This document shows positions 3,375 to 30,154 of a DNA stretch of 30,154 nucleotides, piece after piece. Source of the DNA: an uncultured virus (IMG/VR IMGVR_UViG_3300031720_000001) (Duplodnaviria; Heunggongvirae; Uroviricota; Caudoviricetes); the IMG/VR virus record IMGVR_UViG_3300031720_000001. The stretch is one strand, 5' to 3'. The stretch's first letter is position 1. Every line of letters begins with the position of its first letter. Both the position numbers and the translations under genes were made by a program. The notes under the pieces are model-generated. The model was not told where the DNA came from. It did no database searches and was given only the letters and a program-made list of their open reading frames with translations.

Positions 3375-3379
3375 GTGCC

Positions 3380-11072: not shown

Positions 11073-11085
11073 AAGGAGATTCGAG

Positions 11086-11636: not shown

Positions 11637-12070
11637 GGTTCTTGTCGCTGTCCAGGCCGTGGCCGTGGGCGATCTTCGACCCGGTCGCGAACAAGGGGGT
11701 CGAGAACCGGTCGTGGATGCCGCCGGTCGAGATGATCGGCGAACGGTTTGCGATCCAGGCCTCGAAGTCGTGGGATCACGACGCCATCACGCTGTTCTTC
11801 AAGATGGGGATCACCCACTTCCCCAGCCGCAAGGACCAGTACCCGTCCGGCGTGATCGTCGGCGTCGCCACGCTGGACCGCGTCGTCACCACCGCCGCAA
11901 CGTTGCCGCCCGAGCAGGCCCGGTGGTTCTTCGGTGCGTGCGGGTGGATCCTGACCGACCGGATCGCCCTGCCCACCCCGGTCAAGTGTCAGGGTGCGCT
12001 GGGGCTGCGCATCCTGCCCAGCGATGCGACGGTGGAGGTCATCAGCCAGCTCGAGAAGATGGGAGTCTGA
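11633..12070 (+). CDS. ASCH-domain protein
   Basis: LSLSRPWPWAI...KGVENRSW...IQAS, GVIVGVATL, WFFG..GW, VKCQGALGL. Confidence 0.85.
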   Translation: MRFLSLSRPWPWAIFDPVANKGVENRSWMPPVEMIGERFAIQASKSWDHDAITLFFKMGITHFPSRKDQYPSGVIVGVATLDRVVTTAATLPPEQARWFFGACGWILTDRIALPTPVKCQGALGLRILPSDATVEVISQLEKMGV

Positions 12071-12071
12071 A

Positions 12072-12602
12072 GTGGCACGCTGGAACGGCTACGCGTTGAT
12101 GAGCTCGTGCGGCACGTACCGCTACGAGTTCGGCGGGGAGATCGGACCGTCCGAGCCGCTCCTGGCCATCACGCGCGCGGCCCACGTGATCCTGTGGATC
12201 ATGCTGAACCCATCCAACGCGACCGCCAGCAAGGACGACCCGACGCTCGGGACCGTGGTGACGTTCTCCGAGCTCTGGGGCTACAACCGTCTGGTGGTCG
12301 GGAACCTCTACGCTTACCGCACCAAGTCCCCCAAGAAGATGTGGGACGCCATGAGAACCGGAGTCGACATCGTCGGCCCTGAGAACAACACCTTTCTCAC
12401 CCAGATGGTCGAGCGGGTCCGCGACGCCGGGGGCCGGATCATGGCGGCGTGGGGTGGCGACGCCCAGCGCGAGCGCGTGAGGGAGGTCGCACACCTCGTC
12501 GGCGAGATGTTTTGCCTGAAGACCAACGGCGACGGGTCGCCGACCCACCCGCTCTATCAACCGCATGACCTCGTGCCCGTGCCGTGGAGGATTGCCGCAT
12601 GA
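12072..12602 (+). CDS. DUF1643 family protein
   Basis: SSCGTYRY, WIMLNPS.A....DDPT, VGNLYAYRTKSP, AAWG, PTHPLY. Confidence 0.9.
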   Translation: MARWNGYALMSSCGTYRYEFGGEIGPSEPLLAITRAAHVILWIMLNPSNATASKDDPTLGTVVTFSELWGYNRLVVGNLYAYRTKSPKKMWDAMRTGVDIVGPENNTFLTQMVERVRDAGGRIMAAWGGDAQRERVREVAHLVGEMFCLKTNGDGSPTHPLYQPHDLVPVPWRIAA

Positions 12603-12823
12603 CGGTGACAAAGGCTCAATTGGAGGGTCCGCTACGGCAGATCGCCGCGGCGCTCGAGGAGACACTTCCAACGATGATCGGCGTCGACGAACCGATCGGG
12701 TTCGCGGTCTTCCTGTTCGACTTCGGCGAAACGGGAAGCCTCGCCTACGTCTCCAACGCAAAACGCGAGGACATGATCGCTGCGGTCAAGGAGTGGCTCG
12801 CACTGCAGGGGAGCGCCGCGTGA
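12599..12823 (+). CDS. Conserved phage hypothetical
   Basis: GFAVFLFDFG...YVSNAKREDMI; GGAGG RBS. Confidence 0.7.
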   Translation: MTVTKAQLEGPLRQIAAALEETLPTMIGVDEPIGFAVFLFDFGETGSLAYVSNAKREDMIAAVKEWLALQGSAA

Positions 12824-13008
12824 AGGATGTTGCAACGCTCAAGGCGCGGTATCGCGATGCGAACGATGCGCTACAACGCGTGTGGACACTGGCGACTGGC
12901 ACACGCGGCTACAGCAAAAGCGACTGGATGCTGATCGACCGGGCTCTCAGTGAGAGCTTCCGCGCACTGGCCGAGACGATGGGGTACCGGGGCCCGCTGT
13001 TGCCATGA
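12820..13008 (+). CDS. Hypothetical protein
   Basis: GTGA overlap, GGGGAG RBS. Confidence 0.55.
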   Translation: MKDVATLKARYRDANDALQRVWTLATGTRGYSKSDWMLIDRALSESFRALAETMGYRGPLLP

Positions 13009-13346
13009 TCGAGCTCAACGAAGGCACCTATTGCCTGGGTGCGTGGCTATTGAGCGGGCCCCGCGGTGACTGGTTAGGAATCGCAACCCGTCAGGACGAT
13101 GAGCCTCTGATCCTGAGGTACCGCTTCCGGTGGAACATCGACCGTGATGTCGCGAGATGGTGCACGGCGATATTCCGCGGCAAGAACGAGGACCATGTCA
13201 TTGCCGCCGTCGACGCGTTGCTCGCGTCCCTCCGACGAGACGGATTCTCCGACCGCGAGCCCTGGAAGCGGATCATCCGAGGCGACGCGGAAAAGACCGT
13301 GGCGGTGCTTCGCAACTCGCCGTTCTTCAGGATCACCCCGTTATGA
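13005..13346 (+). CDS. Hypothetical protein
   Basis: ATGA overlaps at both ends. Confidence 0.6.
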   Translation: MIELNEGTYCLGAWLLSGPRGDWLGIATRQDDEPLILRYRFRWNIDRDVARWCTAIFRGKNEDHVIAAVDALLASLRRDGFSDREPWKRIIRGDAEKTVAVLRNSPFFRITPL

Positions 13347-14455
13347 TCGACCCCACCATCTCCGCGCACTACGTGGGCGACTGCCGCAAGCTGCTCCGCC
13401 AGTTGCCGGAGGCGTGCGTGCAGACCTGCATCACGTCCCCACCCTTCTGGGGTCTGCGCGACTACGGGAAGCGGGGGCAGATCGGCCTCGAGCGCACCCC
13501 GGAGAAGTACGTCAAGGTCCTGGTCAAGGTGTTCGAGGAGGTCTGGCGGGTGCTCAAACCCGACGGGACCCTGTGGCTGAACCTGGGGGACTCGTACGCG
13601 GGCTCTCGCTCGGGACCGCAAGGCGTCAACGGACAGATGGCCGACCGCACCGTCTCGAGGCACCGTGCGATGCGCGGCGTCACCAAGGGCATTGACCCCA
13701 AGAACCCACGCAAGGGGCCCGGGGCCAACGACGCCCCGAACCGCATCCGCCAGCGAGGCCTCAAGCACAAGGACCTCGTGGGGATCCCCTGGGCGGTCGC
13801 GTTCGCGCTCCGCGACGCGGGTTGGTACCTCCGCATGGACAACATCTGGAGCAAGCCCAACCCCATGCCCGAGTCGGTGACCGACCGCACCACGAAGGCC
13901 CACGAGTACCTGTTCCTCCTCAGCAAGAGCGCCTCGTACTACTACGACGCGGACACGATTCGAGAGCCACAGGAAACCCTCGGCGAGCGCCACGAGGGAA
14001 AGAGCGGATACCGCGACGGGCACCCCAGCAAGAACGGGCGTACCGCGAACACTCGGACACTACATCCGCTCGGTGCCAACAAGCGATCGGTCTGGGAGGT
14101 CCCGGCCGCGGTCACCCTCGAGTATGCGGAGGAGCAGGCCCGCGCATGGACCGCGCTCGCCGCCACGTTCCGAGCTGGCGGGAGCAAGCCCTCGGTCTGG
14201 AACGTCACCCCGGTCCCCTACCAGGGCGCACACTTCGCCACGTACCCCCCGGCCTTGATCGAGCCCTGCGTGCTGGCGTGCTCGCGCCCGGGCGATCTGG
14301 TGCTGGATCCGTTCTTCGGATCGGGGACCACCGGCGAGGTCGCCGAGCGCTACGAGCGGCGCTGGATCGGCTTTGACATCAACGAGGCGTACGCGTGTTT
14401 GGCCCGGGAGCGGACGGCCCAGCGGAGCTTGCCACTGGCAAGAGGTACGCCGTGA
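13343..14455 (+). CDS. Orphan N4-cytosine/N6-adenine DNA methyltransferase (beta class)
   Basis: GDC, catalytic TSPPF, RVLKPDGTLWLNLGDSY, WSKPNPMPESV.DR, AHFATYP, SAM motif LDPFFGSGTT. Confidence 0.93.
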   Translation: MIDPTISAHYVGDCRKLLRQLPEACVQTCITSPPFWGLRDYGKRGQIGLERTPEKYVKVLVKVFEEVWRVLKPDGTLWLNLGDSYAGSRSGPQGVNGQMADRTVSRHRAMRGVTKGIDPKNPRKGPGANDAPNRIRQRGLKHKDLVGIPWAVAFALRDAGWYLRMDNIWSKPNPMPESVTDRTTKAHEYLFLLSKSASYYYDADTIREPQETLGERHEGKSGYRDGHPSKNGRTANTRTLHPLGANKRSVWEVPAAVTLEYAEEQARAWTALAATFRAGGSKPSVWNVTPVPYQGAHFATYPPALIEPCVLACSRPGDLVLDPFFGSGTTGEVAERYERRWIGFDINEAYACLARERTAQRSLPLARGTP

Positions 14456-14670
14456 ACCGCGCCACCGTTGCCCTTCTGGTCGGGTTCTTTGTGGTCGGGT
14501 GGACCCTGTGTTACCTGATGGTGTTCCACTTCAGCGTCTTCGTGTGTGTGCTGTGTATCTCGTGGGGGTTGGCCCTGGTAACGGGGGTGGTGCTGCGGAT
14601 TCACTGGTGGCGCCAGCGCCGTAAGGAGCGAGAGCGGATCCCGAGGGCGGTCGGTAGGATGCGGACATGA
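14452..14670 (+). CDS. Small two-TM membrane protein with basic tail
   Basis: GAGG RBS; GTGA/ATGA overlaps. Confidence 0.6.
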   Translation: MNRATVALLVGFFVVGWTLCYLMVFHFSVFVCVLCISWGLALVTGVVLRIHWWRQRRKERERIPRAVGRMRT

Positions 14671-14882
14671 TGACCCAGCGGCGCGCTTTGCAAGTACTCA
14701 TCCGCCACGCAGCGGCCAACGTCGCCGGGGTTGGCTGCGGTATTCGGCCGGTCCTCTCCACCGAGGCCAAGGAGGACGTCTCTGCTGCGGTCCGCGCCAT
14801 GTGGCGTCGCGCGCACGGCTACCCGATGTCTGACAGCGACTGGTTCAACCTGCGACTGGATCCGCCTCGGAGTACCAAGTAG
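14667..14882 (+). CDS. Hypothetical protein
   Basis: Coupled by overlaps. Confidence 0.55.
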   Translation: MMTQRRALQVLIRHAAANVAGVGCGIRPVLSTEAKEDVSAAVRAMWRRAHGYPMSDSDWFNLRLDPPRSTK

Positions 14883-15518
14883 TGGCCGAGCTCATCGCAT
14901 ACGCGGCGCGCACGGGCACCCTCCGCAACCTCGCGGGCATCCGCGACCTGGGGTGGCGTCTCCTGTTGTCCGCGGCCGGCGAGCACCGGAGCGAGGGGTT
15001 CGAGGACCTTGGCATCGGCCTCGACAACGGCGCGTGGTCGGTGCGTGACACCGGCGGGTACCCGGCCGAGCTCAAGCGGCGTTTCATCCGGCTCCTGCTC
15101 GCACTAGGCGCGGTCGCCGACTGGGCGGTCCCACCGGACATCGTCGCAGGGGGGGGCAGATCGCTGGCGCTGGCTACCCTGGGTTCTGAGGCACTGCCGA
15201 CGGGCGCTCCTGGCCGTCCAGGACGGGATGACGGTCGACGAGGTCCGTCCGTACCTGGGCGGCGACGTCGGGATCTTCGTCGGCGGCTCCACGCCGTGGA
15301 AGCTCGCCACCATGGCCGAGTGGGCGGACCTCGCGCGCGAGAAGCGTGCGTGGTGTCACGTCGCCCGGGTGAACACGGCGCTCCGCATCCGCAAGGTCGC
15401 GCTGGCGGGCGCGACGTCGTTCGATGGCAGCAGTGCGTCGCGGTTCTTCGTCTCGCAGGCCGGGCTTGGACGCGCGGTCGCGCAACAACATCTCGTGCTC
15501 TCGGAGGACACTGAATGA
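14882..15518 (+). pseudogene. TGT/DpdA-like (deazaguanine transglycosylase-like) gene split by a +1 frameshift near 15149-15173
   Basis: First frame: LDNGAW, PDIVAGG. +1 frame: RWLPWV..LLAVQDGM, GIFVGGS, CHVARVN, SFDGS. Order mirrors TGT motifs DSGG/D/VQG/GG/H/DxFD; abuts queD. Confidence 0.65.
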
Positions 15519-15949
15519 TCGCCACGATCGCCAAGCAATTCACGTTCGATGCCGCGCACCGCCTGGACCGGCTACCGCCCGAGCACAAGTGCCATGGCAT
15601 GCACGGCCACACCTACGTCGTCGAGCTCATCTTCTCGGGCGAGGTCGACGCGAACGGGTTCGTGATGGACTACGCCGACATCGCCGAGATGTGGCAACCA
15701 CTCCACGCCGTTCTGGACCACAAGGTCCTGAACGAGGTGCCCGGGCAGGCGGTGCCGTCCACCGAGCACCTGGCCGGGTGGATCTTCGCGCACCTGATCG
15801 AGCGCAAGCCCGGGCAGAAGCCACTCACCAGCACGCCCGCCCAGGCGATGCTCAATGTGGTCCGCGTCAAGGAGTCGACCTCGACGTGGTGCGCGGTGTG
15901 GCGCAACGAGCTCCTGGCTGCAGACCTCGAGCGGTTCCTCCTGAACTGA
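15515..15949 (+). CDS. queD: 6-carboxy-5,6,7,8-tetrahydropterin synthase
   Basis: KQFTFDAAHRL, KCHGMHGHTY, LDHKVLNE, PSTEHLA, VRVKES; GGAGG RBS. Confidence 0.93.
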   Translation: MIATIAKQFTFDAAHRLDRLPPEHKCHGMHGHTYVVELIFSGEVDANGFVMDYADIAEMWQPLHAVLDHKVLNEVPGQAVPSTEHLAGWIFAHLIERKPGQKPLTSTPAQAMLNVVRVKESTSTWCAVWRNELLAADLERFLLN

Positions 15950-15952
15950 CCC

Positions 15953-16180
15953 ATGATCGATGCACGCAAGATTCGAGATCGGCGAGAGCGTCGGCGCACA
16001 GCGTTCCGGCGCGTGGCGGAGCTTCGCAAGGAGTTGGGGGACTTCGACCTTGTCGTTGCCCACCTGCAGCGTGAGCACGCGCGCGTTTACGATGCCATCG
16101 ACCTCCTGCGCCGTATGGGCGATGACTTGCGTAACACCCTGGGTAAGGCAGTCGACGCGCTCGACGAGTTGCCCCTATGA
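15953..16180 (+). CDS. Hypothetical coiled-coil protein
   Basis: Helical 75-aa ORF; ATGA overlap. Confidence 0.6.
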   Translation: MIDARKIRDRRERRRTAFRRVAELRKELGDFDLVVAHLQREHARVYDAIDLLRRMGDDLRNTLGKAVDALDELPL

Positions 16181-16770
16181 GGTGGCACAAATCATGGCGA
16201 GCGGACCCGGTGGCACGGCGGATCGCCGACGGGCATTACAGCCGGCAGAAGGTCGGGGCGGATCAATTCGTCCAGCCGGGTCGGTGCGTCGTCCTGGTCA
16301 TCCCGGAGGTCGCCTACTGGGTGACGTCGTGGCCGCTCCCCCAGTATGTCAAACACGCGTGGCCGAACGCGTGGTCCTGCGCGGCGTTCAGAAACCTCCG
16401 ACACTGCAGCATCTGTGGTCGCCCGGCTGTGTGCCCGGATCACCCGACGGCGCCGACGCGCACGCTCCACCGGTCCAGTGACCTGATCCTCTCGGCGATC
16501 GCAGCCACGCGGTTCTACTGGACGCCCCCACCGGTGGGGATGATCACGTTTGTCGACGAGACAAAGGTCTGCCACAAGCGCGATCCGGGGCGATGTTTCC
16601 TCAAGGCCGGGTTCCATCGCGCCGGCACCCAACCGGGATGCACCTGCGAGGGCACACCGCAGGAGACCGAGACCGAGGGGCACCTCGCGTTCCATCTCGC
16701 AGTGGACGCGATGCCGGCCGCCGTCCAGCCGCTGGGCGCCCAGTCGAGCCTCGTGCTGGGGGCGATGTGA
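16177..16770 (+). CDS. Conserved phage protein, possibly Mom/GNAT-like DNA-modifying enzyme, with a Cys-rich insert
   Basis: ADGHYSRQKVG..QFV.PGR, WSCAAFRN, SSDLI, GMITFVD..KV..KRDPGRCFLKAGF resembles the Mom-like TY.D...G..Y.A.GW signature. Confidence 0.55.
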   Translation: MRWHKSWRADPVARRIADGHYSRQKVGADQFVQPGRCVVLVIPEVAYWVTSWPLPQYVKHAWPNAWSCAAFRNLRHCSICGRPAVCPDHPTAPTRTLHRSSDLILSAIAATRFYWTPPPVGMITFVDETKVCHKRDPGRCFLKAGFHRAGTQPGCTCEGTPQETETEGHLAFHLAVDAMPAAVQPLGAQSSLVLGAM

Positions 16771-17214: not shown

Positions 17215-17733
17215 TCAGTCGTCGTTCACACCCGGCTCGGTCAGCGTGACCGCGGGGTTCCCGGCGACCGCGGTGCCGTCCATGACGAACGCGATCTCGA
17301 CGCCGTCGCAGTCGAGGTCACCGGTGGCCTTCGCGTTGAACGTCGCAGCGGTGCCGGTGTAGTCGTAGTAGAACAGCGTGGGCTCGTCGATCTGGAAGTC
17401 CAGCGCCTTCCAGACCGGATCGGCGACAAAGCCCGTGGGGTTGGCCAGGCAATGGTTGTTGGGACCGCCGCAGCACCCGCCGGTCCCCGGCTTGGCTGGG
17501 AGCTGCAGCGCGGTCCCGGGCGTGAACGCGGCGGTCTCCGAGTACACCCGCTTGGCGTTCTTGCCGATCTTGTTCAGTTGCAGACTGGCCTCCGTCTTCT
17601 TGGACCGCTTCATGTAGTCCATGAAGGCGGGGATCGCGACGGCCGCCAGGATGCCGATGATCGCGACGACGATCATGAGCTCGATGAGGGTGAAGCCAGG
17701 GAGAGGTCGGCGGGTGCGTCGAGTGGTTTGCAT
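17215..17733 (-). CDS. Type IV pilin (prepilin, PilA-like)
   Basis: Basic leader, then [25 protein letters not shown] with E5; C-terminal [16 protein letters not shown]. Confidence 0.93.
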
Positions 17734-17861
17734 GGTGCTCCACGTGCACGCAAGCAGCGGGCCGGCGGTAACCCGCTGCAATCGTGCGCTGGAGCATCCA
17801 GGAAGTGCCGAGAACTGTCACTGGCGGGCGCAAACTAGGCCCGCTGTCCATTGGAGGGGCT

Positions 17862-18146
17862 ATGCACACGTACATCTGTCGGCGCGGCGACGCCGAGATC
17901 CGGATCATGATCAACCTGGACTGGTCGGGCGAGGCCCACGTGGTCGTCGTGGACCCGGGGCGACGGAACGCCCGGGACCGGCTGCCCGCGGTCGATCTCG
18001 TCAATGGCGTGGTCCCCACGCGCGAGATCGTGGTGGAGAACCCCACGTGGCTGCTCCCGCACGAGTGGTGCTGGGCGGTCGCACTGGCGGCCCGCCAGTA
18101 CACCATCTACCAGTTGCGCGCGGCCATCCTGAGTGTCGGGGCATAG
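17862..18146 (+). CDS. Hypothetical protein
   Basis: GGAGGGG RBS; MHTYICRRG... Confidence 0.65.
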   Translation: MHTYICRRGDAEIRIMINLDWSGEAHVVVVDPGRRNARDRLPAVDLVNGVVPTREIVVENPTWLLPHEWCWAVALAARQYTIYQLRAAILSVGA

Positions 18147-18148
18147 AC

Positions 18149-18358
18149 GTGAGGGTCTCTGAATTGTCCGTCGGCGACCATGTCGAGGACTCCCGGACGG
18201 GCGCGGTCGTCAAGGTGGCCGCGATCGAGCCGTGCGGCTCGTGCCCATGTGGCTGGGGCGAGATTGAGTTGCATCAGATCGGACCCGACCCCCGCAAGAC
18301 GCGGAAGACGTTCAAGCAGTTCGAGCGCCTCAAGTTCGTTCGAAGGGTCTCCCTGTGA
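18149..18358 (+). CDS. Small hypothetical protein
   Basis: VRVSELSVGD...CGSCPC; GTGA overlap downstream. Confidence 0.55.
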   Translation: MRVSELSVGDHVEDSRTGAVVKVAAIEPCGSCPCGWGEIELHQIGPDPRKTRKTFKQFERLKFVRRVSL

Positions 18359-18579
18359 GTTGCGCTTGCCAGTGGCAACATCACCCGTCGTTGGGCGACG
18401 TGCTGGTGACCCCGTGCCACGAGCACATGGTGCAGAACCGGCTGTCCCATCTCGACCCGGAGACCCGCGACTACCACATCGTGCGCCTGCTCGACGCCGA
18501 GCTCGACCACTTCGTGCGTGAACACGCCAAGGGGCGTCGGGTCGAGCCCGCTCAAGCGCTCGGTCCAAGGAGGACGTGA
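18355..18579 (+). CDS. Hypothetical protein
   Basis: Coupled GTG start; GC3-rich. Confidence 0.55.
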   Translation: MSCACQWQHHPSLGDVLVTPCHEHMVQNRLSHLDPETRDYHIVRLLDAELDHFVREHAKGRRVEPAQALGPRRT

Positions 18580-18593
18580 TGGCCCAACTCGCG

Positions 18594-19061
18594 TCAGAAC
18601 AACTCGATCACGGTGAGCTTGCGCTGGGTGTCGTTCGCGCGGGCGCTACCGCCGATCGCGGCCCACCGGGTGTCGACGGTGTGCGACCCAGCAGCCAGTG
18701 TGATCAGGGCGTGCGCCGAACATGGCGCCAGGGTATCGACGGTCAAAAGGCCCAGCGTGACCGCGAGATTGCAACTGACCTGGCGGCGGGTCCCCGCGAT
18801 TTCAACGCCATCCAAGAACAGCGCGTAGTTGAAGTTGTCTGCGACGGCGGCGATATGGAAGTCGGCGTCGAACAGCGCCAGCAACTGGCCACCGATGGTG
18901 GTGACGGTCAGGGTCATCTCTGGGATCACCACGAAGGCGGCGTTGGCGCTGGTGGGGTTGGCGGTCGATCCGGTGACCGTGGCGCGGGCGCCCAGCGAAT
19001 CCCCTGCCTGGATCTGCTGGGGCTGGGGCGGGACGATGACCATGGGGCGGCGCGATGCCAT
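18594..19061 (-). CDS. Putative virion structural/fibre-associated beta protein
   Basis: Thr/Ala-rich; IPEMTLTVTT, LAAGSHTVDTRW, RKLTVIEL typical of fibre C-terminal domains. Confidence 0.6.
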   Translation of the reverse strand: MASRRPMVIVPPQPQQIQAGDSLGARATVTGSTANPTSANAAFVVIPEMTLTVTTIGGQLLALFDADFHIAAVADNFNYALFLDGVEIAGTRRQVSCNLAVTLGLLTVDTLAPCSAHALITLAAGSHTVDTRWAAIGGSARANDTQRKLTVIELF

Positions 19062-19070
19062 GGTCTCTAC

Positions 19071-19556
19071 CTAGAGCAGGATGGTGGTGTCGATCTCGAT
19101 CATCATCGTGACCGTGTCGATCGCGGTGCCGACCGGCGCCACGAACTGCCCGGCGGTCGCGGGGGCCGTCGTGGTGAGCTTGCCGGCCGCTGCGGCGTCC
19201 AGGAAGTACGCCGACCCGGCGGTGAGTCCGCCGGTCTGGCCGGTCACCGCGTCCCACTGCGTGGTGGTGGCGATCAGGGGGCCTTCGAGCGCGACCACAC
19301 CGGATGCCGATGCGGCAATGCTGGGGGATGTCGCGACCAGGCCGATCGCCCGCGTGGTCGCGGCGGCGTTCGCGCGGGCCAGTTGGAACGCGGTGTTGCC
19401 GCTGATGTAGACCGGCGCGCCGATCACGGCGGAGACGCCGCCGGCGTTGGTGAGGGTCAGTTCCATCGCTCCGGTCGTGGGGACGTCCAGCACGTCGCCC
19501 GCGGGGAGTTGCTGGATCTGGTTGCCAATGATGACGAGGGGCTTGCGCGCGGACAT
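19071..19556 (-). CDS. Putative capsid decoration/cement-like protein (DUF2190-like)
   Basis: GAPVYI...LARAN...AIGLV...GLTAGSAYFL...GKLTTTAP...VGTA; GGGAGA RBS. Confidence 0.65.
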   Translation of the reverse strand: MSARKPLVIIGNQIQQLPAGDVLDVPTTGAMELTLTNAGGVSAVIGAPVYISGNTAFQLARANAAATTRAIGLVATSPSIAASASGVVALEGPLIATTTQWDAVTGQTGGLTAGSAYFLDAAAAGKLTTTAPATAGQFVAPVGTAIDTVTMMIEIDTTILL

Positions 19557-19568
19557 GGGGTTCTCCCT

Positions 19569-20279
19569 TCAGTGAAGGAGGACGGGGAGGGTGAGCAAGA
19601 CGATGAGGGTGTCGGCGTCGCGGGCAGTACCTACGGCGACCACGGACTGTCCTGGGATCGTGGGAGGCGACGTCGAGATCTCACCCGGGGAGGTCGCCAA
19701 GGTGTACAGCGCGCCCGGAGTGAGGCCGCCGACCTGGCCGGTCACGGCGTCCCACTGCGCCGTGGTGAGGACCATGGCGCCGACGCTTTGCAGTGGCGTG
19801 GGCATTGTGGGTGCGGTGGTGGCGATCGCCAACCCCACAACGGGCGCGGTCGCCCCGGCCGATGCGTCGCCCCGCACGCCCAGGGCGGTCACCGGGGAGC
19901 CAGCCAAGATCGGTACGCCGGAGTTGTTGGTGACCGTGAACTGCTCGGCGGGGTTGGGGGCCCCGTTCGAGGACGGCGCGAAAGGACCCGGGCTCAGGCG
20001 GTTGGTGAAGCTGCCGTCTTGCCCGCTGTCACCGAACAGCCGGTCGATCGGATGCCACGCTTCGACCAGACACTCGCAGTCCGCCGCGACCAAGCCCAGG
20101 TTGGCCACGGTCACGGTGCTGGTATCGGCGTCGACGACCTCGAAGAGGCCCGCGGTGCGGAGCGCGATCTGGTCCGGCACCAGCGCGACGCCGCGGATGT
20201 TCAGGTGATGGGCTGCGAACACGACTCCGCTGGGCGCAACGCCCGTGAACGTCACCAGACTCTTCAGCACGTCCACCAT
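19569..20279 (-). CDS. Putative structural protein; C-terminal domain paralogous to 19071-19556
   Basis: Shared TTxQWDAVTGQxGGLTxGxxY.L...G..xTxxP..xGQ.V..VGTA. Confidence 0.7.
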   Translation of the reverse strand: MVDVLKSLVTFTGVAPSGVVFAAHHLNIRGVALVPDQIALRTAGLFEVVDADTSTVTVANLGLVAADCECLVEAWHPIDRLFGDSGQDGSFTNRLSPGPFAPSSNGAPNPAEQFTVTNNSGVPILAGSPVTALGVRGDASAGATAPVVGLAIATTAPTMPTPLQSVGAMVLTTAQWDAVTGQVGGLTPGALYTLATSPGEISTSPPTIPGQSVVAVGTARDADTLIVLLTLPVLLH

Positions 20280-20609: not shown

Positions 20610-21010
20610 GCAGCCACCGGATCACGTTCGTTCTGACCGGCTACGTTGACGCGGTCAAGCGGAGCGTACGCCGGATGCTCGACAACCACGGATTTACCGA
20701 GGTCAGCTTCGATGTGGGGCCTGAGATGGTGCTCGTTCACGCCGATGGTGGCACGTGCCACGGGACACCGCTCGTCGACGGGCGGTGCCCCGCGTGCGGC
20801 ATCGTTCCGGACATGCAGTCGACGGAGATGTGGCCACGGGCGACGGTCTCTCTCGACGCCAGGACACCGACGCTTCCGAGGCGGCATGCACCTGTCCTAT
20901 CGAAGGATCTCTCGCGGGTGATCGGATGCCGCTGTGGCTGGCGACCCAGCGGAACGCCGGGCTCTGATGCAGAGACCGAGTTGGCGGAACATCACGCTTC
21001 GTGTCGGTAA
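20606..21010 (+). CDS. Cys-containing hypothetical protein
   Basis: MSSHRITF...CPAC...CRC; GGAG RBS; ATGA overlap. Confidence 0.6.
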   Translation: MSSHRITFVLTGYVDAVKRSVRRMLDNHGFTEVSFDVGPEMVLVHADGGTCHGTPLVDGRCPACGIVPDMQSTEMWPRATVSLDARTPTLPRRHAPVLSKDLSRVIGCRCGWRPSGTPGSDAETELAEHHASCR

Positions 21011-21014
21011 TGCC

Positions 21015-22022
21015 ATGCGTGTCCTCCTCCTTCACCTCGACGGCAAGCTGCCGAACATCGCGTTGATGCGGATCGCGCATCACCACCGGGCGCTGGGCAA
21101 CGAGGTGACGCTACGCCGTGCCGGCAACGCCAACGCGCTGGAGCCTCGGTTCGGCGATCCGGGCTGGGATCGGGTCTACGCATCGGCGATCTTCGAGCGC
21201 AGCCGGCCGCTCGCCGAGCGCGTCATGGCCCTCTACCCGCAGGCGGTGGTGGGCGGTACGGGCTCGTGGAATCTGTCGCAGACGCTGGAGAGCATCGGCG
21301 TGGCGACCGAGGGACCGATCGACTACACCGACTATCCACGGTGGCGGCAGTCGCTGGGCTTCACGATGCGCGGGTGCCGGCTGGCGTGCGAGTTTTGTGT
21401 TGTGCCGCGCAAGGAGGGCAAGGCGCGCGCGGTCGCGACCATCGACGAGATCTACCGCGGCGCCGGGCACCCCCTCGAGCTGGTGCTGCTGGACAACGAT
21501 TTCTTTGGTAACCCCAACGCCGACCAGGTCGCTGACGCCATCCGTGACGGCAAGTTCCGGGTGAACTTCTGCCAGGGCATCAACGCCCGCATGCTCTCGG
21601 ACCGCGCGGCGGAGGTGATCGCGTCGCTCGACTACCGCGACACGAACATGAAGACCCGGCGGATCTACACCGCCTGGGACTCCAAGGACGACGAGCGCGT
21701 GCTGTTCCGGGGGCTCGAGGCGCTGGTCCGCCACGGGGTCAAGCCGCGCCACATCATGGTGTACATCCTCATCGGGTTCTGGCCCGGGGAGACCCACGCC
21801 GACCGCGACCACCGGCGCGCGCAGCTCCGAGCGTTCGGCGCCCTGCCCTACCCGATGCCGTACCGGCGCACGCCTGAGCTCGTGGGCTTCCAGCGCTGGG
21901 TGATCGGCGCGTACGACAAGCGGATCCCGTGGAGCGAGTTCGCTGGAGCGCGGTTCTCGCCACGACAACTGGGCGACCGGACCACGTTGCCCTTGTTCAA
22001 CCCGCAACCACCCGAGGTGTGA
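21015..22022 (+). CDS. Radical SAM enzyme (phage type, PNIALM N-terminal domain)
   Basis: DGKLPNIALMRI, FTMRGCRLACEFCVVPRKEG (CxxxCxxC), LLDNDFFG, QGINAR, MVYILIG. Confidence 0.88.
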   Translation: MRVLLLHLDGKLPNIALMRIAHHHRALGNEVTLRRAGNANALEPRFGDPGWDRVYASAIFERSRPLAERVMALYPQAVVGGTGSWNLSQTLESIGVATEGPIDYTDYPRWRQSLGFTMRGCRLACEFCVVPRKEGKARAVATIDEIYRGAGHPLELVLLDNDFFGNPNADQVADAIRDGKFRVNFCQGINARMLSDRAAEVIASLDYRDTNMKTRRIYTAWDSKDDERVLFRGLEALVRHGVKPRHIMVYILIGFWPGETHADRDHRRAQLRAFGALPYPMPYRRTPELVGFQRWVIGAYDKRIPWSEFAGARFSPRQLGDRTTLPLFNPQPPEV

Positions 22023-25215: not shown

Positions 25216-26127
25216 ATGACGACGAAGCGAGAGGACAAGCTGTACCCACATATCACCGGCGTCGTGGGCGACGAGGGGGAGAACCCGGGCGTACTGGCGG
25301 TCGTAGCGGTGCTCGACCCCAACCCCTACTTCCCCGACGTCGGCCGGATCATCGTCGGGTCGCCGCAAGAAAGCGAGGCGTTGCCGGGCTACCTCCCGGA
25401 CCTGGGTGGCTTCAGCATGGGGATCGACGGTGCCGAGCGCCTGATCGCGACCTTGCAGCAGGCGATCAGCGACATCCGCGCCGCGACCGGCAACTACAAG
25501 ACCAGCGAGGTGTGGGCCCACCCACCCTACCTGGCGGGGTTCGAGCGGATCGGACGGCTCGACGCCACCGGTCGCAGGTCGCTCTGGCTCAAGGAGGGCC
25601 ACGACGAGTTCGAGCTCCGCGCCGGCCGCGAGGGCGGTGACGAACACGTCCGGGTCACCACGGACAATCCGCAGTTCCAAGACCTCCACAACGCGATGGC
25701 CTGCGCCCGGTTCGCCGCGGAGTACGAGCACGAGCACGGCTATGCCCTGAGCCCGCTGGGGATCGAGCACTTCGGCTACGAGACCTCTGGTGGCGTGGTG
25801 ACCGACGAAGCGCTGCACCACACCACGGTCTTCACCTTCCGTGACCCGGTACTCGGGCCGTTCCGCGTGCTGGTTCGCCACGGTCGCCACTTCGCCGTCC
25901 AGTACCCCCGCCCGCCGGATCCGGACCCCTTGTCGCCCGAGCAGGATGCCCGGGTGAGCTGGGAGTCGGTCACCCTGCAGGCGTGCGGCGTCACGCCCGA
26001 CACCATCATGGCGGGGCTGCTGGTCGCGTTGGCCGCGTACGGCACGTACGGCGCTGACCCTCACATCAGGCCGCTGGTCACGGTCACGGCCGATAACGTC
26101 ACCACCATCGACCTGGGAGAGATCTAA
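25216..26127 (+). CDS. Hypothetical protein (303 aa)
   Basis: GGAGG RBS; GC3-rich frame. Confidence 0.75.
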   Translation: MTTKREDKLYPHITGVVGDEGENPGVLAVVAVLDPNPYFPDVGRIIVGSPQESEALPGYLPDLGGFSMGIDGAERLIATLQQAISDIRAATGNYKTSEVWAHPPYLAGFERIGRLDATGRRSLWLKEGHDEFELRAGREGGDEHVRVTTDNPQFQDLHNAMACARFAAEYEHEHGYALSPLGIEHFGYETSGGVVTDEALHHTTVFTFRDPVLGPFRVLVRHGRHFAVQYPRPPDPDPLSPEQDARVSWESVTLQACGVTPDTIMAGLLVALAAYGTYGADPHIRPLVTVTADNVTTIDLGEI

Positions 26128-26131
26128 CCAC

Positions 26132-27310
26132 ATGAGCAAGAAACCGAAGAAATCGAACCGCAAGGCGCCCACCGAGCTCCCGATCGAAGCGGACTACGGT
26201 GCCGCGAACATCCTGATCCAACAGGTCGGCCATCACATGGGCGTGGCGATCGAAGAACTCATTACCGGTCGCAATGCGGTCCACTACGGCGCGCTCCTCT
26301 TGCAGGCAATCGATACACTGAAGCGCCGGGACCTCCAGACCAGCGTGAGCGCTGCGCAAGAGGAAGACGCCCAAGCGCCGAGGGGGGTCTCCGATCGCTG
26401 GATGGATCGCGAAATCGACCGGGCCAACGCAGCGGCCAAGTACACGAGAGACCAGGACCCGGTCGTACCCCTTGCGCAAAACCGGTTCCGCGACGACCCG
26501 GGAGACACCCGCTTGCTCATCGACCTCATCGACCGCGAGCTCGGTCTTCCGTTCGATCCCCAGAACCCCCAGAGCCTTCAGGGGCGGCTGCGCGCGATCT
26601 ACGACGTGATCTTCCGCCTCAAGAACCCCTCGGGCGACGTCGCCACGGACGCCGACAGCGGCGCGCTCTCCAAGGGCGACTCGCTGGTCCAGGCGATCGA
26701 TCACAATGCCGCCCAGCGCGACCACCTGGCCACCGAGCTCACCGGGGCGCGTACGCTCATCTCCCGGATCGCTGCAGCGATGCAGATCGGGGCATGGGAC
26801 GCGGACGGCACCCAGTTGCTCGAGAAGGTGCAGCGCTGGGAGACGTTCAAACACCGGCTGGCCTGGCGGATCCGAGACTTGCGTAACGGGACCTCCGAGG
26901 CTCCGCAGAATCTGGCCTCCCTGGTCGCCGGCGAGCTCCAGACACACCTCTCCCGCCTCATGGCGCCCCGGGAGTTCGCGAAGTGGCTCGAGGGCAAGCC
27001 CCCGGGCGTGGTCACACCGGCGGTCGCCGAGCTCGCCGCCGAGCCCGCGCCCAAACAGGAACAGGAGATGATGAGCTCGGGCGATATCATCCGACTCGCG
27101 CGACTCATCCACAGGAACTTTGAACTGTCTCTCGAGGATCCCCTGGGGGATTACCTCGACAAGGTGTTCACCGCGTTATCGAAGTCGGTCGTCGCCAGCC
27201 AGGAGTTCCTAAACCTCATGAACCTGGTCATCCTGCCGCTCTTGGCCCGGCAAGCCGCGGCACAGGGCACGGGCACGGATGCCCGGTCTGCGCCCCACGT
27301 AGATCCGTGA
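26132..27310 (+). CDS. Hypothetical helical protein (392 aa)
   Basis: GGGAGA RBS; long GC3-rich ORF. Confidence 0.75.
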   Translation: MSKKPKKSNRKAPTELPIEADYGAANILIQQVGHHMGVAIEELITGRNAVHYGALLLQAIDTLKRRDLQTSVSAAQEEDAQAPRGVSDRWMDREIDRANAAAKYTRDQDPVVPLAQNRFRDDPGDTRLLIDLIDRELGLPFDPQNPQSLQGRLRAIYDVIFRLKNPSGDVATDADSGALSKGDSLVQAIDHNAAQRDHLATELTGARTLISRIAAAMQIGAWDADGTQLLEKVQRWETFKHRLAWRIRDLRNGTSEAPQNLASLVAGELQTHLSRLMAPREFAKWLEGKPPGVVTPAVAELAAEPAPKQEQEMMSSGDIIRLARLIHRNFELSLEDPLGDYLDKVFTALSKSVVASQEFLNLMNLVILPLLARQAAAQGTGTDARSAPHVDP

Positions 27311-27327
27311 TCTTGCCACTGGCAAGA
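27311..27327. promoter_or_regulatory. Palindrome TCTTGCCA-C-TGGCAAGA (intergenic copy of a 5-copy motif)
   Basis: Core TTGCCASTGGCAA also starts at 3518, 9237, 14429, 18366. Confidence 0.7.
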
Positions 27328-27383
27328 AGTCCCTTGACGCCTCGCCTCGGCGTATGCAAGGTGACTCTCAGGGAGTACCCGAG

Positions 27384-27782
27384 ATGATGCCATCCGCTGC
27401 ATGGAAGAGAGACTGCCCGGGCCTGCGCGCCCTGGCGCGTGACGTCGCCGATCGATCGCTGGACGCAAGCGAGCGGCTGTCCGCGCACGTGACGGCCCAG
27501 GCGCTGTTTGGCGCAGTTGGGCTCGCCGCGGCGCGCCACGGCGTGGATGCGATGCAGCGTGCGTGCGCCGACCTGGTTCGCTGTGAATCGGCATGGACGA
27601 CGAAGTTTGGCAACCTCCCCCGAGATCACGCCGGACAGGTGTCCGAGCCGATGGCGCTCATCGCCAGCATGGCGAGGGGTCTTTTGCCCCTGGCCGGGGT
27701 GGACCGGCTGCGCGCGGCGCTGGCGTTCTGGGCAGTCGAGGATGACCCGGCGGTGTGGCGCCGGATGGTCCCCAACGACTAA
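27384..27782 (+). CDS. Hypothetical protein
   Basis: GGGAG RBS before MMPSAAW... Confidence 0.65.
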   Translation: MMPSAAWKRDCPGLRALARDVADRSLDASERLSAHVTAQALFGAVGLAAARHGVDAMQRACADLVRCESAWTTKFGNLPRDHAGQVSEPMALIASMARGLLPLAGVDRLRAALAFWAVEDDPAVWRRMVPND

Positions 27783-27783
27783 C

Positions 27784-28017
27784 TCACCTGCGCCAGCTGC
27801 GAGCTCCGCATCGTCGGGTCGCGGCCACGGCCTGGACGACCGCACGTTCCCGCGTGCGGCGCGCGGCGACCGACCGGACGATCTCCATCATCACCGGACC
27901 GGTGGTCCAGGCGATGGCGCCGCGGACCCCGGCATCGTCGACGTGGCCATGCAGCACAAAGAACGTGCCCGCGACCACGCACATGTTCATGACCGGGCGG
28001 ATGAACAGGCCGATCAT
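27784..28017 (-). CDS. Small membrane protein
   Basis: MIGLFIRPVMNMCVVAGTFFVL...; ATGA-coupled to the 28014-28133 ORF. Confidence 0.55.
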   Translation of the reverse strand: MIGLFIRPVMNMCVVAGTFFVLHGHVDDAGVRGAIAWTTGPVMMEIVRSVAARRTRERAVVQAVAATRRCGARSWRR

Positions 28018-28133
28018 TGCCTGCCGAATCGCTTCTGGCAGTAGGCCGACCACCAGGTCGCCGCCACCACCACTCCGACGAACAGCGCGACGATCCCGAC
28101 CATGGTCAGATCCACGGACATTCCTGCGAGCAT
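28014..28133 (-). CDS. 39-aa single-TM peptide (absent from ORF track)
   Basis: MLAGMSVDLTMVGIVALFVGVVVAATWWSAYCQKRFGRQ; AAGGGG RBS. Confidence 0.5.
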   Translation of the reverse strand: MLAGMSVDLTMVGIVALFVGVVVAATWWSAYCQKRFGRQ

Positions 28134-28215
28134 CGGACACCCCCTTAGGGAGATCCCTTGATGACAGGTTATGCGGGTCGCATGGGGTACGACCGAGGTA
28201 CCCGGATGACTACCG

Positions 28216-29214
28216 TCACTCGTGGAACCGGATGTCGAGCTCTTGCGCCGGGGAGTCGGCCGTCAGGCTGGTGTTGTAGACCGTCACCAGGAAGTCGGCG
28301 TTGGTGGTGCCGGTCTTGACCACCGCGATCGGGATGGCCTGGGTGGTGGCGGCGGCGTTGCGGAAGGTCGACTGCACCGAGTCCTGCAGGCTGACCGGCG
28401 ATCCCAGGTAGGCGAACACCCGGGGCTTGAACGGCGCGGGCAACGTGACCGGGGTGCCGACCTCGAGCGGTACGGTGATCGCGTCCGCGATCAGGGTCGT
28501 GGTCGTCGAGAACCCCAGCACGCGACCGGTCAGGGCCCCGACGTCGTCGATCGAGAACGTCGAACCCGCGGTGGGCATGAACGTCCCGACGGCCACGTTC
28601 GCGGTGTCGATGGTGACGTTGCCACCCACCACCCAGAACACGTTGGCGGGATCCGCGCCGTTGGTGCAGTTGATGGTGGCGCCAGCGCCGGTGGTGAGCG
28701 CGCCGGAGATCCGGAACACGAACAGCCCGGGCCCGGACAGGTGAATCGTGCTGGCGGCGCTCGTCGTCGCCGCGCCGGTCACGACGTACACGCCGGCGGT
28801 GTATGTGCCCACGGTCCCGTGGGTGGCGTCGGTGGAGAGGTTGATGGCGCCGGGGGCGAATGAAAACGTGGCTGGCAGCGCCTGGAGCGCGGTGCGCGCG
28901 GTCGCCATGTCGGCCAGCGCCTGGGTGTACGTCGCGTCGTTGACGTGGATCGTGCCCGACACGGTGGGCTGCTCGACCGGCGCTGTCACGTAGCCCAGGT
29001 TGCCCGTGATGCGGGACCCCGGGACCGTGTTGACGTAGATCGGGCTCAGAACCCCGAACCGCTGCGCGGCGCCCAGATTGGGCGCCACGGGGGGCGTGGC
29101 CACAAAGCCCGGCAGCGCGAACGCGCCCGCGGACCCGGCCGGGATCGAGACCCCGGTCACCCGGATCAGCCGATCAGACACCTGCTTGACGACCGCGGTA
29201 CCCTCGAATGGCAT
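28216..29214 (-). CDS. Structural-type protein containing an ice-binding-like (DUF3494) domain
   Basis: NLGAAQRFGVL, ITGNLG, GTIHVND...QALAD, GVY, FVFRISGALTT, NGADPANVFWVVG, GRVL; C-terminal ~80 aa paralogous to the 29918 gene. Confidence 0.85.
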   Translation of the reverse strand: MPFEGTAVVKQVSDRLIRVTGVSIPAGSAGAFALPGFVATPPVAPNLGAAQRFGVLSPIYVNTVPGSRITGNLGYVTAPVEQPTVSGTIHVNDATYTQALADMATARTALQALPATFSFAPGAINLSTDATHGTVGTYTAGVYVVTGAATTSAASTIHLSGPGLFVFRISGALTTGAGATINCTNGADPANVFWVVGGNVTIDTANVAVGTFMPTAGSTFSIDDVGALTGRVLGFSTTTTLIADAITVPLEVGTPVTLPAPFKPRVFAYLGSPVSLQDSVQSTFRNAAATTQAIPIAVVKTGTTNADFLVTVYNTSLTADSPAQELDIRFHE

Positions 29215-29537
29215 GCCAGGAACGATACACCGCTGGCTAGCTGGGCAGAAATGCCACGTGCTGCCCAAAGAAACCATGTCCTCCCCGCTCCGTGCGTCGA
29301 TGACCTTCATGGGAGGTAAAAACCCCCTCTTACCGCCCGGACAAACAAGCTGGACCGAACTTGCGGGACGTTCCTTCTTGTGCCGGGAATCACGGTCTCC
29401 AAGGGCGCTTTGCTCGGTGGTTCCTGCCGTTCCTTCATCGGCAGGCCGGCTTGTCGCCGAGGGGCTTGGACGTTGCCCTTATTTGGGCGAAGAGGTTGGC
29501 ACGCTCGAGTGCGGGGAGCAGCGAGGGGATGGTCGCC

Positions 29538-29583
29538 AGACCAGTATAGGGATCGAACCTATGCTCCCTGATGTTCAGTCAGG
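29538..29583 (-). ncRNA. tRNA-like 3' half (GAA anticodon arm + T arm); no canonical 5' half
   Basis: CCTGA-CTGAACA-TCAGG, GAGC, ATAGG-TTCGATC-CCTAT, ACTGGTC-T. Confidence 0.55.
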
Positions 29584-29634
29584 ATTGCGTGTGGGCTCCC
29601 CGCGATGGAGCGTGACGGGAGGAGGCTAGCACAC

Positions 29635-29929
29635 CTACTCGTGGAAAGGGCAGGATTTGGCTTCTCGTGGGCGGTTGTACCCACAAAGGAGACGTCCTAT
29701 GAAGCGAGTCACTCGGAAGCGACTGAGCCTGAAGGGAGAGACCTTGCGTGAGCTAACAGCCAAGGCGCTCAGGGTCGCCGTTGGCGGCCTCCCGACCGAA
29801 GACAGCAATATCGGTGAGTTCTGCGCCACCACGGCGACCTACCCGTCCTGCCAGAACACGGTGTGTATCAACGATCCCAGGAACACCTGCGGTATCAACG
29901 ACCGCTGCTGATCGCTGCTACTCGTGGAA
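29635..29929. repeat. 12-bp direct repeat CTACTCGTGGAA (29635-29646, 29918-29929) flanking the RiPP precursor
   Basis: Exact match; equals the last four codons (FHE-stop) of the minus-strand gene ending at 29918. Confidence 0.85.
29699..29911 (+). CDS. RiPP (lanthipeptide-like) precursor peptide with double-glycine leader
   Basis: AAAGGAGA RBS; leader KRLSLKGETLRELT...VAVGG; core LPTEDSNIGEFCATTATYPSCQNTVCINDPRNTCGINDRC (5 Cys, 6 Thr, 2 Ser). Confidence 0.8.
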   Translation: MKRVTRKRLSLKGETLRELTAKALRVAVGGLPTEDSNIGEFCATTATYPSCQNTVCINDPRNTCGINDRC

Positions 29930-30154
29930 CCGGGCCATGATCTCGAGGTTCGGGGTGGCCAGCGTCGCGTGGGTGTTCGTGATCGTCGCCCGGAAGTCGG
30001 CGATCGAGGTCCCCGTCTTGACGATCGCGATCGGCACCGCGGTCGCCACCCCGACCGCGGCCGGCGCGGCCGTGACCTCGATCGAGTCCTGGAACGGCAC
30101 GTTGGACCCCAGGAACGCGTAGTGCTCGGTCTTGAACGTCGCCGGCAGCTCGAC
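29918..30154 (-). CDS. Putative structural protein, 5' end beyond window; paralog of the 28216 gene C-terminus
   Basis: VELPATFKTEHYAFLGSNVPFQDS...PIAIVKTGT..ADF...RFHE vs VTLPAPFKPRVFAYLGSPVSLQDS...PIAVVKTGT..ADF...RFHE. Confidence 0.8.
   Translation of the reverse strand, partial: VELPATFKTEHYAFLGSNVPFQDSIEVTAAPAAVGVATAVPIAIVKTGTSIADFRATITNTHATLATPNLEIMARFHE

Follow-up and report, generated by a model that had tools for sequence, protein, structure and literature searches.

A small precursor-type gene in a repeat-flanked cassette

Near one end of a 30,154-nt window of viral DNA (the window being the whole stretch that was analysed, from IMG/VR record IMGVR_UViG_3300031720_000001, an uncultured member of the Caudoviricetes), a 70-aa open reading frame (ORF) lies on the plus strand, antisense to both of its minus-strand neighbours and inside a unit bounded by two copies of the last 12 nt of the adjacent gene. 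The ORF extends from an ATG at 29699 to a TGA at 29909-29911, 243 nt from the end of the window, and encodes MKRVTRKRLSLKGETLRELTAKALRVAVGGLPTEDSNIGEFCATTATYPSCQNTVCINDPRNTCGINDRC. A Shine-Dalgarno sequence, AAGGAG, is present at 29686-29691, 7 nt 5′ of the ATG. The leader contains LSLKGETLREL, followed by V28-G29-G30, and the 40-aa core contains 5 Cys, 6 Thr and 2 Ser. An earlier note on this DNA, made from the letters alone, had pointed to a 70-aa plus-strand ORF, antisense to its neighbours, with a strong ribosome-binding site, a leader, a VGG site and a Cys/Thr/Ser-rich core, and all of these can be read directly. A TTG at 29657, which would give a longer version of the ORF, was dropped as a start because all relatives described below open with the same Met, followed by Lys or Arg.

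Translated in six frames, the window contains a single instance of the leader pattern and a single instance of the core motif, and the leader pattern appeared in 0 of 200 shuffled windows. In the window peptide the conserved core motif reads C-A-T-T-A-T-Y-P-S-C (29822-29851). A 21-nt direct repeat in the core-coding region (29854-29874 and 29881-29901, 76% identical, encoding NTVCIND and NTCGIND) suggests that the C-terminal part of the core may have grown by duplication. The window is GC-rich (63-70%) and gene-dense, and the G+C content at third codon positions (GC3) of the cassette, 0.80, is not distinctive among window genes, which range from 0.75 to 0.92. The Atlas structure model of the peptide is poor (predicted local distance difference test [pLDDT], 0.31).

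The two 12-mers (CTACTCGTGGAA) are 283 nt apart, and the unit consists of a 271-bp insert plus one 12-mer. With at most one mismatch, CTACTCGTGGAA has 3 matches in the window compared with 0.11 expected, a count that was reached in 0 of 100 shuffles. The earlier note had placed the ORF exactly between the copies. The repeat itself stands, as both copies are exact and the end of the adjacent gene, FHE-stop, forms the right one; the ORF, however, is not flush with either, being separated by 52 nt (left 12-mer to ATG) and by 6 nt (peptide stop to right 12-mer). The left gene, which ends in TCACTCGTGGAA, also terminates in RFHE-stop, because the two neighbours are paralogs: their last 78 residues are 50% identical (39/78; E 1e-19), and Arg-Phe-His-Glu-stop closes each of them. 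The left copy matches these gene ends for exactly 12 nt and no further, the next letters being AGGG rather than the CCGG (conserved Arg codon) of both true ends. The insert itself aligns locally to the two paralogs with scores of 19 and 20, which compare with shuffle means of 18.1 and 18.4 and were equalled in 112/300 and 80/300 shuffles.

Two smaller repeats occur at the edges of the cassette: a near-copy of the 12-mer, GCTTCTCGTGG, matching in 10 of 11 letters at 29660-29670, 14 nt inside the cassette, and a tandem 10-mer, GACCGCTGCT / GATCGCTGCT, at 29900-29919, which spans the peptide stop and the right junction. Both may be insertion scars. We found no terminal inverted repeats pairing the ends of the insert, no transposase or recombinase in the window by Pfam and PHROGs scans, and no further copies of the cassette in the window. 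Among the features of a transposon or miniature inverted-repeat transposable element with a target-site duplication, only the direct repeat was present.

An empty version of the site

Soil sequencing run X1 contains 98% of the sampled words of the window and was flagged as its possible source; about 64% of the run was read, and the depth of the main contig is 10.8. A 404-nt contig of this run, at depth 4 and ~87% identical to the window, joins 29616 to 29918, carrying a single 12-mer and lacking the 283 nt. This is the empty site that the earlier note had predicted. The contig differs from the window at 4 of 51 letters across 29566-29616 and at 30 of 223 across 29918-30140, and the 19 letters between its two matches include the 8-mer GCTAGCAC, which in the window (29625-32) lies just before the 12-mer. 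Since the differences fall mostly on third codon positions (18 of the 25 listed in-gene differences), the contig points to a related genome of lower abundance that carries a functional homolog. As would be expected of a moron, the cassette is absent at the same site from a related genome, as judged from this one X1 contig.

Because the repeat borders are sharp, which an insertion and not a decayed paralog would be expected to leave, and a single event suffices, arrival of the cassette by insertion with target duplication is the favoured direction. Microhomology capture cannot be told apart from other routes to a 12-bp flanking duplication, or from loss of the cassette between the repeats in the variant; a staggered cut, microhomology-primed copying and a site-specific event are all candidate mechanisms.

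A peptide family from metagenomes

An exhaustive HMMER search of 1.84 billion representatives identified P0002 (4.2e-9), P0003 (1.3e-4) and P0006 (4.3e-4) as relatives of the window peptide (P0001). Two rounds of profile searches added P0007-P0009 and then P0010-P0011, resulting in 8 relatives and a family of 9 (P0001-P0003 and P0006-P0011). P0004 and P0005 proved to be spurious, being long repetitive proteins, and P0012 and P0013, which have only the leader in common, were excluded. In a word-based search, the sole match was the peptide itself, on the 92,154-nt contig.

In the alignment, leader residues K7, L9, E14, L19 and G29 are invariant in 9/9 members, as are core residues T45, Y48, P49 and C51, which form T-x-x-Y-P-x-C. 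These core residues belong to a longer motif, C-P-T-T-x-G-Y-P-x-C, whose first Cys (C42) is kept in 8/9; P0011 lacks it yet retains Thr45 and Cys51. All nine members are derived from metagenomes and none has a functional name or an NCBI record. The four that were looked up (P0001-P0003 and P0006) are each a singleton cluster. The core motif matched no named family in the libraries searched, and scans for it returned 12, 3 and 11 stretches in genome, viral and metagenome contigs, respectively, none of which was confirmed. A leader scan of genome contigs gave 29 stretches, also without confirmation.

Because relatives with a conserved leader and core occur in other samples, the 70-aa ORF is, judging by this conservation, a real precursor-type gene. 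As far as the alignments can tell, it is a member of an undescribed peptide family that combines an L1a-type leader with an invariant T-x-x-Y-P-x-C core and comes, so far, from metagenomes only.

Leader type

Double-glycine leaders end in GG (or GA/GS) and have hydrophobic residues at -4, -7, -12 and -15. The window leader has both features, with A-4, L-7, L-12 and L-15 preceding G29-G30, and these positions are also hydrophobic in the aligned full-length relatives.

Comparison of the leader with models of RiPP (ribosomally synthesized, post-translationally modified peptide) precursors, which the earlier note had proposed as a check, returned NF038153 (lant_leader_L1a, "class I lanthipeptide") for 7/9 family members at E <= 10. 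Residues 1-30 of the window peptide align to profile positions 1-32 of 32, with 14.0 bits (E 0.041). The closest relative, P0002, scores 23.7 bits and is the sole member above the curated cut-off of 22, followed by P0007 (20.4), P0008 (16.4), P0011 (13.2), P0003 (11.7) and P0010 (11.5); P0006 and P0009 had no match to this model. By transitivity through P0002, the window leader is homologous to L1a leaders. In the protein atlas, the nearest cluster (score 0.88, a lead only) has the Pfam domain Lant_leader_dom in 63% of its members. The model TIGR04149, for GG leaders of peptides modified by radical S-adenosylmethionine (SAM) enzymes, matched P0008 weakly (8.4 bits, E 2) and did not match the window peptide.

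According to the accessible text of Walker et al. (2020, bioRxiv 10.1101/2020.03.13.990614), there are class I LanAs, for the most part from Bacteroidetes, in which LxLxKx5L replaces FxLD; many of them have a Gly-Gly end, and their clusters often include a C39 protease. The window leader fits the spacing of this motif (L9-x-L11-x-G13-x5-L19, then G29-G30), with its Lys at position 12 instead of 13. The core, with 8 Ser/Thr and 5 Cys in 40 residues, is compatible with (methyl)lanthionine formation, a matter of compatibility only; the retention of Thr45 and Cys51 in P0011, which has lost the first Cys, is a hint in favour of a thioether.

Because peptides of other classes use leaders of this kind as well, the case for a RiPP/bacteriocin-type precursor processed at GG is firmer than that for a lanthipeptide. 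The claim of the earlier note that such leaders mark a lanthipeptide-type precursor is thus borne out in part: the leader has homologs in that class, including P0002 above the NF038153 cut-off, while the window peptide itself falls short of it.

Maturation enzymes

The window was tiled with 59 ORFs, the longest of 573 aa, which were scanned against Pfam, PHROGs and NCBIfam. As the earlier note had stated, no lanthipeptide synthetase is recognisable: Pfam and NCBIfam gave no LanB, LanC, LanM or C39 match among these ORFs, and Pfam no match to an ABC transporter or Peptidase_C39. The scan covers 30,154 of the 92,154 nt of the contig, on one side of the peptide gene, and the orphan status of the peptide is therefore established only for these 30 kb.

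The window does encode a radical SAM protein (20934-22022). Because its family occurs in cultured phages of unrelated hosts (16 records), it is unlikely, on present comparisons, to be the peptide's maturase. Neither a SPASM nor an RRE domain was detected in it at a threshold as permissive as E <= 1, and it has no sequence relative in the PDB.

Leader-like ORFs in other viral contigs

Scanning IMG/VR with a degenerate DNA pattern for LxLxxETLRxLT gave 15 loci, about the number estimated for chance. Eight of these are the same open stretch of 10 residues, RLALGHETLR, followed by a stop; 3 lie inside long ORFs, 2 are short frames that are not leader-like, and 2 (in records L003 and L005) are small ORFs with the full leader layout, namely a Lys-rich start, LxLxxETLRxLT, AG or GG, and a tail rich in Ser, Thr, Cys and Pro. 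The first, L003:5980-6135 (+), encodes 52 aa and lies between portal/MuF and terminase genes on the strand opposite to both. It scores 13 bits on NF038153, a value that is partly circular given its pattern-based discovery. The second, L005:5971-6153 (+), encodes 61 aa and has no NF038153 match. The two records measure 10.6 kb (15% complete) and 53.7 kb (85% complete). Neither matched LanC, C39 or LanB-N, although the LanB-N search is weak, being silent in control genomes too, and no flanking repeats were found around either ORF.

Neighbouring genes and phage setting

The features at the end of the window are listed in Table 1. The left neighbour matches Pfam Ice_binding (1.4e-19) and, in the PDB, the sequence of 5uyt (2.2e-18). 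Such a DUF3494-type gene is unusual in a phage and possibly encodes a fibre or adhesin. IMG/VR contains one distant locus for this gene, the match being confined to the ice-binding part. An AlphaFold2 model of the 364-aa protein from the single sequence had a pLDDT of 36. Run X1 also contains odd joints between the paralogs, at depth 2-2.4, one from 28332 to 28423 (skipping 90) and one from 28491 to 30065 with 18 letters between; these are hints of further paralogs or recombinants.

Table 1. Coordinates of the cassette, its flanking repeats and the adjacent genes
Positions	Strand	Feature	Basis
28216..29310	-	Left neighbour, 364 aa: DUF3494/ice-binding-like beta-solenoid (residues ~70-283), then C-terminal domain ending RFHE-stop	Pfam, PDB
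29311..29634	-	Intergenic region between cassette and left gene	Hairpin; 29566-29616 and 8-mer 29625-32 also in empty-site variant
29635..29646	.	Left copy of the 12-mer CTACTCGTGGAA, in no gene	Exact repeat
29647..29698	+	5′ region of cassette, with AAGGAG and near-copy of the repeat	Direct reading
29699..29788	+	Leader peptide, residues 1-30, ending G29-G30; L1a / LxLx(K)x5L...GG type	NF038153
29789..29911	+	Core peptide, 40 aa, and TGA stop	Family alignment
29912..29917	.	Spacer of 6 nt separating the convergent stop codons, part of the tandem 10-mer	Direct reading
29918..29929	-	Right copy of the 12-mer: F-H-E codons and TAG stop of right gene	Exact repeat
29918..30154	-	3′ end of right neighbour (78 codons), which runs off the window	GC3 1.00

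In the intergenic region, a 20-nt stem (29500-19 / 29595-614, minus strand) is 85% complementary, with 75 nt between its arms. It encloses two tRNA-like hairpins, one resembling a T-arm (AUAGG-UUCGAUC-CCUAU) and the other an anticodon arm, and in the empty-site form it would lie ~20 nt after the stop of the right gene. The hairpin could be a terminator or the remnant of a tRNA-type attachment site. No tRNA, tmRNA or known RNA was identified in 29311-29634: ARAGORN gave 0 calls, Rfam gave 0 both at gathering and at E <= 1, and relaxed ARAGORN settings produced implausible calls only.

A seawater metatranscriptome run, X2, contains two 151-nt contigs with 2 differences each, matching 29112-29262 and 29273-29423 only. 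They cover the 5′ end of the left gene and the sequence upstream, placing near-identical sequence in a second, unrelated-looking sample, and do not reach the peptide gene. Together, the contigs of runs X1 and X2 that were compared with the window leave 29656-29871 uncovered.

The window probably comes from a phage genome, judging by its gene content. PHROGs families were matched by 13/59 ORFs; some of these families have no known function (1e-35 to 1e-40), and the others include QueD, a DNA methyltransferase, a pilin-like moron and a glycosyltransferase. Relatives in cultured phages were found for the radical SAM protein, as noted above, and for the ORF at 16177-16770 (6 records). At the nucleotide level, blastn of 26000-30154 against 50,697 phage records returned no relative; tblastn of the peptide gave one match, at E 5. 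No IMG/VR loci were found for the window's 392-aa ORF.

Elsewhere in the window, 9845-16000 contains a dCMP-deaminase-like ORF, a DUF1643 ORF, an N6/N4 DNA methyltransferase (CcrM-like) and QueD (above the TIGR03367 cut-off), and a glycosyltransferase is encoded at 3326-4546. Together with the phage-family radical SAM protein, these genes are likely to form a DNA-modification set. Within the otherwise plus-strand genome, a minus-strand block at 17215-20279 begins with a prepilin-type protein, followed by three ORFs without a family. The prepilin-type protein carries an N_methyl motif, and its best NCBIfam match is the N-terminus of Myxococcus-type PilA (4.7e-16). This block may be another moron block and a weak hint as to the host.

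Discussion

We consider it somewhat better than an even proposition that the locus is a phage accessory, or "moron", cassette that encodes a class I lanthipeptide-type precursor, matured in trans and exported. The 283-bp unit sits directly past the stop of a surface-type gene (DUF3494), the last 12 nt of which are duplicated at its flanks, and in this scheme the peptide would be produced in the infected or lysogenised cell. The leader would dock the peptide on enzymes of the dehydratase/cyclase type that either the host provides in trans or another part of the contig encodes, and the most conserved candidate ring would be a thioether between Thr45 and Cys51. A C39-peptidase exporter would then cut after G29-G30, freeing the 40-aa core outside the cell, where it may have antimicrobial or signalling activity. 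What we infer from the comparisons described above covers modification, cleavage, export and activity, as well as arrival of the cassette by insertion.

Several observations weigh against this reading. The window peptide is under the curated cut-off of NF038153 (14.0 vs 22 bits), has no Pfam match even at E <= 10, and carries a Gly where a strict LxLxK motif would have Lys. Leaders of its relatives weakly match models for radical SAM targets, ATP-grasp targets and class II bacteriocins, and the leader type is thus not exclusive to lanthipeptides. Because no relative was seen in its genomic context, a link to an enzyme is lacking for every family member. Hallmark phage genes, for capsid, portal and terminase, were not recognised in the window, and a scan of 29250-30154 with a sigma-70-type consensus only found 0 promoter-like and 0 terminator-like sites. 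Finally, the evidence for an empty site is one short, low-depth contig, probably from the window's own sample; a second locus or a mis-assembly could in principle account for this contig, and an exact deletion from one repeat to the other would produce an identical empty site.

This last point is the core of one alternative, which we regard as possible, if on the unlikely side: that the cassette was lost from the variant rather than gained. Here the 12-mers would be ancestral, for example as relics of rearrangement among tandem paralogs that all terminate in TTCCACGAGTAG, and recombination or slippage between the repeats would have removed the unit. Because both neighbours are paralogs with nearly the same end, such a sequence is prone to recur, and the third near-copy within the cassette and the depth-2 joint from 28491 to 30065 between paralogs in run X1 fit a history of this kind. 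Deletion between direct repeats leaves exactly one copy, as in the 404-nt contig. Yet the match of the left copy to the gene ends breaks off at exactly 12 nt, where both true ends go on with CCGG, and the insert has no significant similarity to either paralog. Loss also needs at least two events, compared with one for insertion with target duplication.

It is also conceivable, although we think it unlikely, that the same cassette encodes an unmodified or disulfide-bonded double-glycine peptide, similar to a class II bacteriocin or a signal, which would need only a C39-peptidase ABC exporter of the host. The GG leader, with its hydrophobic positions in all full-length relatives, is in keeping with such a peptide, as are the failure of the window peptide to reach the NF038153 cut-off and the weak match of the P0012 leader to a class IIb bacteriocin model. 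However, of the family matches obtained for any member, the strongest, and the sole one above its cut-off, is to the class I lanthipeptide leader. The pair C42 and C51, which brackets the motif in 8/9 members, fits a disulfide loop too, but P0011, without the first Cys, fits a Thr-Cys thioether better than a C42-C51 disulfide, and the number of Cys in the window core is odd.

A third alternative, which strikes us as rather improbable, is that the peptide is not an orphan: its maturase and exporter would lie on the other 62 kb of the contig, or the radical SAM gene at 20934-22022 would fill the role. The peptide gene does lie at the very edge of a window that represents about a third of the contig, and peptides modified by radical SAM enzymes use similar leaders, as the weak TIGR04149 match of P0008 illustrates. 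Against the radical SAM protein, beyond its lack of SPASM and RRE domains, stand the breadth of its family among phages, its distance of 8 kb from the peptide gene and its location in a different gene block. The two viral records with leader-like ORFs, in which LanC, C39 and LanB-N were not detected, also weigh against this alternative, with the weakness of the LanB-N search noted above. Enzymes elsewhere on the contig would be compatible with the rest of the moron-cassette interpretation.

We find it very unlikely that the peptide is a decoy, the leader of which occupies the lanthipeptide enzymes or exporter of the host and blocks a host peptide with, for example, anti-phage activity. Anti-phage class I lanthipeptide clusters are reported for Actinobacteria in the accessible text of one preprint (bioRxiv 10.1101/2024.06.26.600839), and a phage gene that is a substrate only would suit a decoy. 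However, a decoy that works purely through its leader would have no need of the core conservation seen throughout the family, and the core motif of the peptides in that preprint, TxDxCxxxCxxxC, is absent from the window peptide.

That the ORF is non-functional, either a chance frame or antisense to a decayed third paralog, seems extremely unlikely: a 65-aa minus-strand ORF (29635-29832) does end in FHE-stop, and its stretch PQVF-LGS...QDG recalls the VFAYLGS...QDS of the paralogs in short strings shared in a MAFFT alignment, but eight relatives with conserved leader and core in other samples rule out a chance ORF for practical purposes, GC3 is 0.80 in the peptide frame compared with 0.68 in the antisense ORF, and, despite the MAFFT strings, local alignment of the DNA to the paralogs scores no higher than shuffles.

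Recognition and interpretation of RiPP precursors usually rely on the enzymes encoded beside them. A conserved lone precursor carried by a phage as a presence/absence cassette would mean that a virus can reprogram or exploit the peptide-modifying machinery of its host with a 210-nt substrate gene alone, which would make lysogenic conversion, warfare between bacteria or counter-defence very cheap to achieve. The filled and empty sites provide a clean natural experiment on the function of the cassette. A broader proposal, that phages repeatedly carry such enzyme-less cassettes of class I lanthipeptide type as small mobile elements, whereby host RiPP machinery is either used to make a product of the phage's choosing or jammed by decoys that counter lanthipeptide-based anti-phage defence, is one that we advance as a long shot. 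Under that proposal, the locus would be a case caught in the act, as its filled and empty forms occur together in a single sample.

Comparison with known systems

The closest known counterparts are class I LanAs with L1a leaders (NF038153), of the pinensin type from Bacteroidetes as far as described in the accessible text of Walker et al. (2020), with which the window leader shares length and layout. Like these leaders, it begins with a stretch rich in Lys and Arg, continues with L-x-L, E-T and L, and closes with GG at residues 29-30; the core is likewise rich in Thr, Ser and Cys, and the NF038153 alignment spans the whole 32-position profile. Unlike a typical class I LanA, the window peptide scores below the cut-off, the Lys of LxLxK is displaced, and no LanB, LanC or C39 accompanies it in the window. 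Its C-P-T-T-x-G-Y-P-x-C core lies outside named families, its relatives come from metagenomes only, and its own genome is phage-like.

Precursors that lie apart from their enzymes are known from prochlorosins, where ProcA-type peptides with NHLP/Nif11 leaders are unclustered and are modified by a trans-acting, ProcM-type enzyme of the same cellular genome. The window precursor similarly lies far from any enzyme seen, and maturation in trans through a shared leader would apply to it as well. Unlike in prochlorosins, the enzyme would come from another replicon, that of the host, and the leader is of the L1a and not the NHLP/Nif11 type.

As a genetic element, the cassette resembles phage morons and lysogenic-conversion genes such as bor and lom of lambda and the HK97-type morons. 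Like these, it is a small accessory gene that some relatives have and others lack, and it is oriented opposite to the essential-looking phage genes on either side. It differs in that no promoter or terminator of its own was detected, in its flank formed by a 12-bp duplication of the neighbour's end, and in its RiPP-type cargo. Sublancin is encoded on the prophage SPbeta, in a bacteriocin/RiPP cluster that includes genes for modification and export. The window likewise places a ribosomal peptide gene on a phage, where it could benefit the host; unlike SPbeta, only the substrate gene is seen within the window.

As described in the accessible text of the preprint (bioRxiv 10.1101/2024.06.26.600839), "lanthiphages" are host-encoded, restricted to Actinobacteria, made by LphB/LphC, and characterised by the TxDxCxxxCxxxC core. 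They have in common with the window peptide a link of class I lanthipeptide chemistry to phage-bacterium conflict, and none of the features listed there for them occurs here. Viral contigs were excluded from the RiPP set of a Microbiome 2024 paper (PMC11118758), according to its accessible text, and our literature search, the coverage of which mostly excludes subscription journals, found no description of enzyme-less lanthipeptide-type precursors in phages. Set beside these systems, the kind of precursor is known, the peptide family is unnamed, and a substrate-only phage cassette with both alleles in one sample is unusual.

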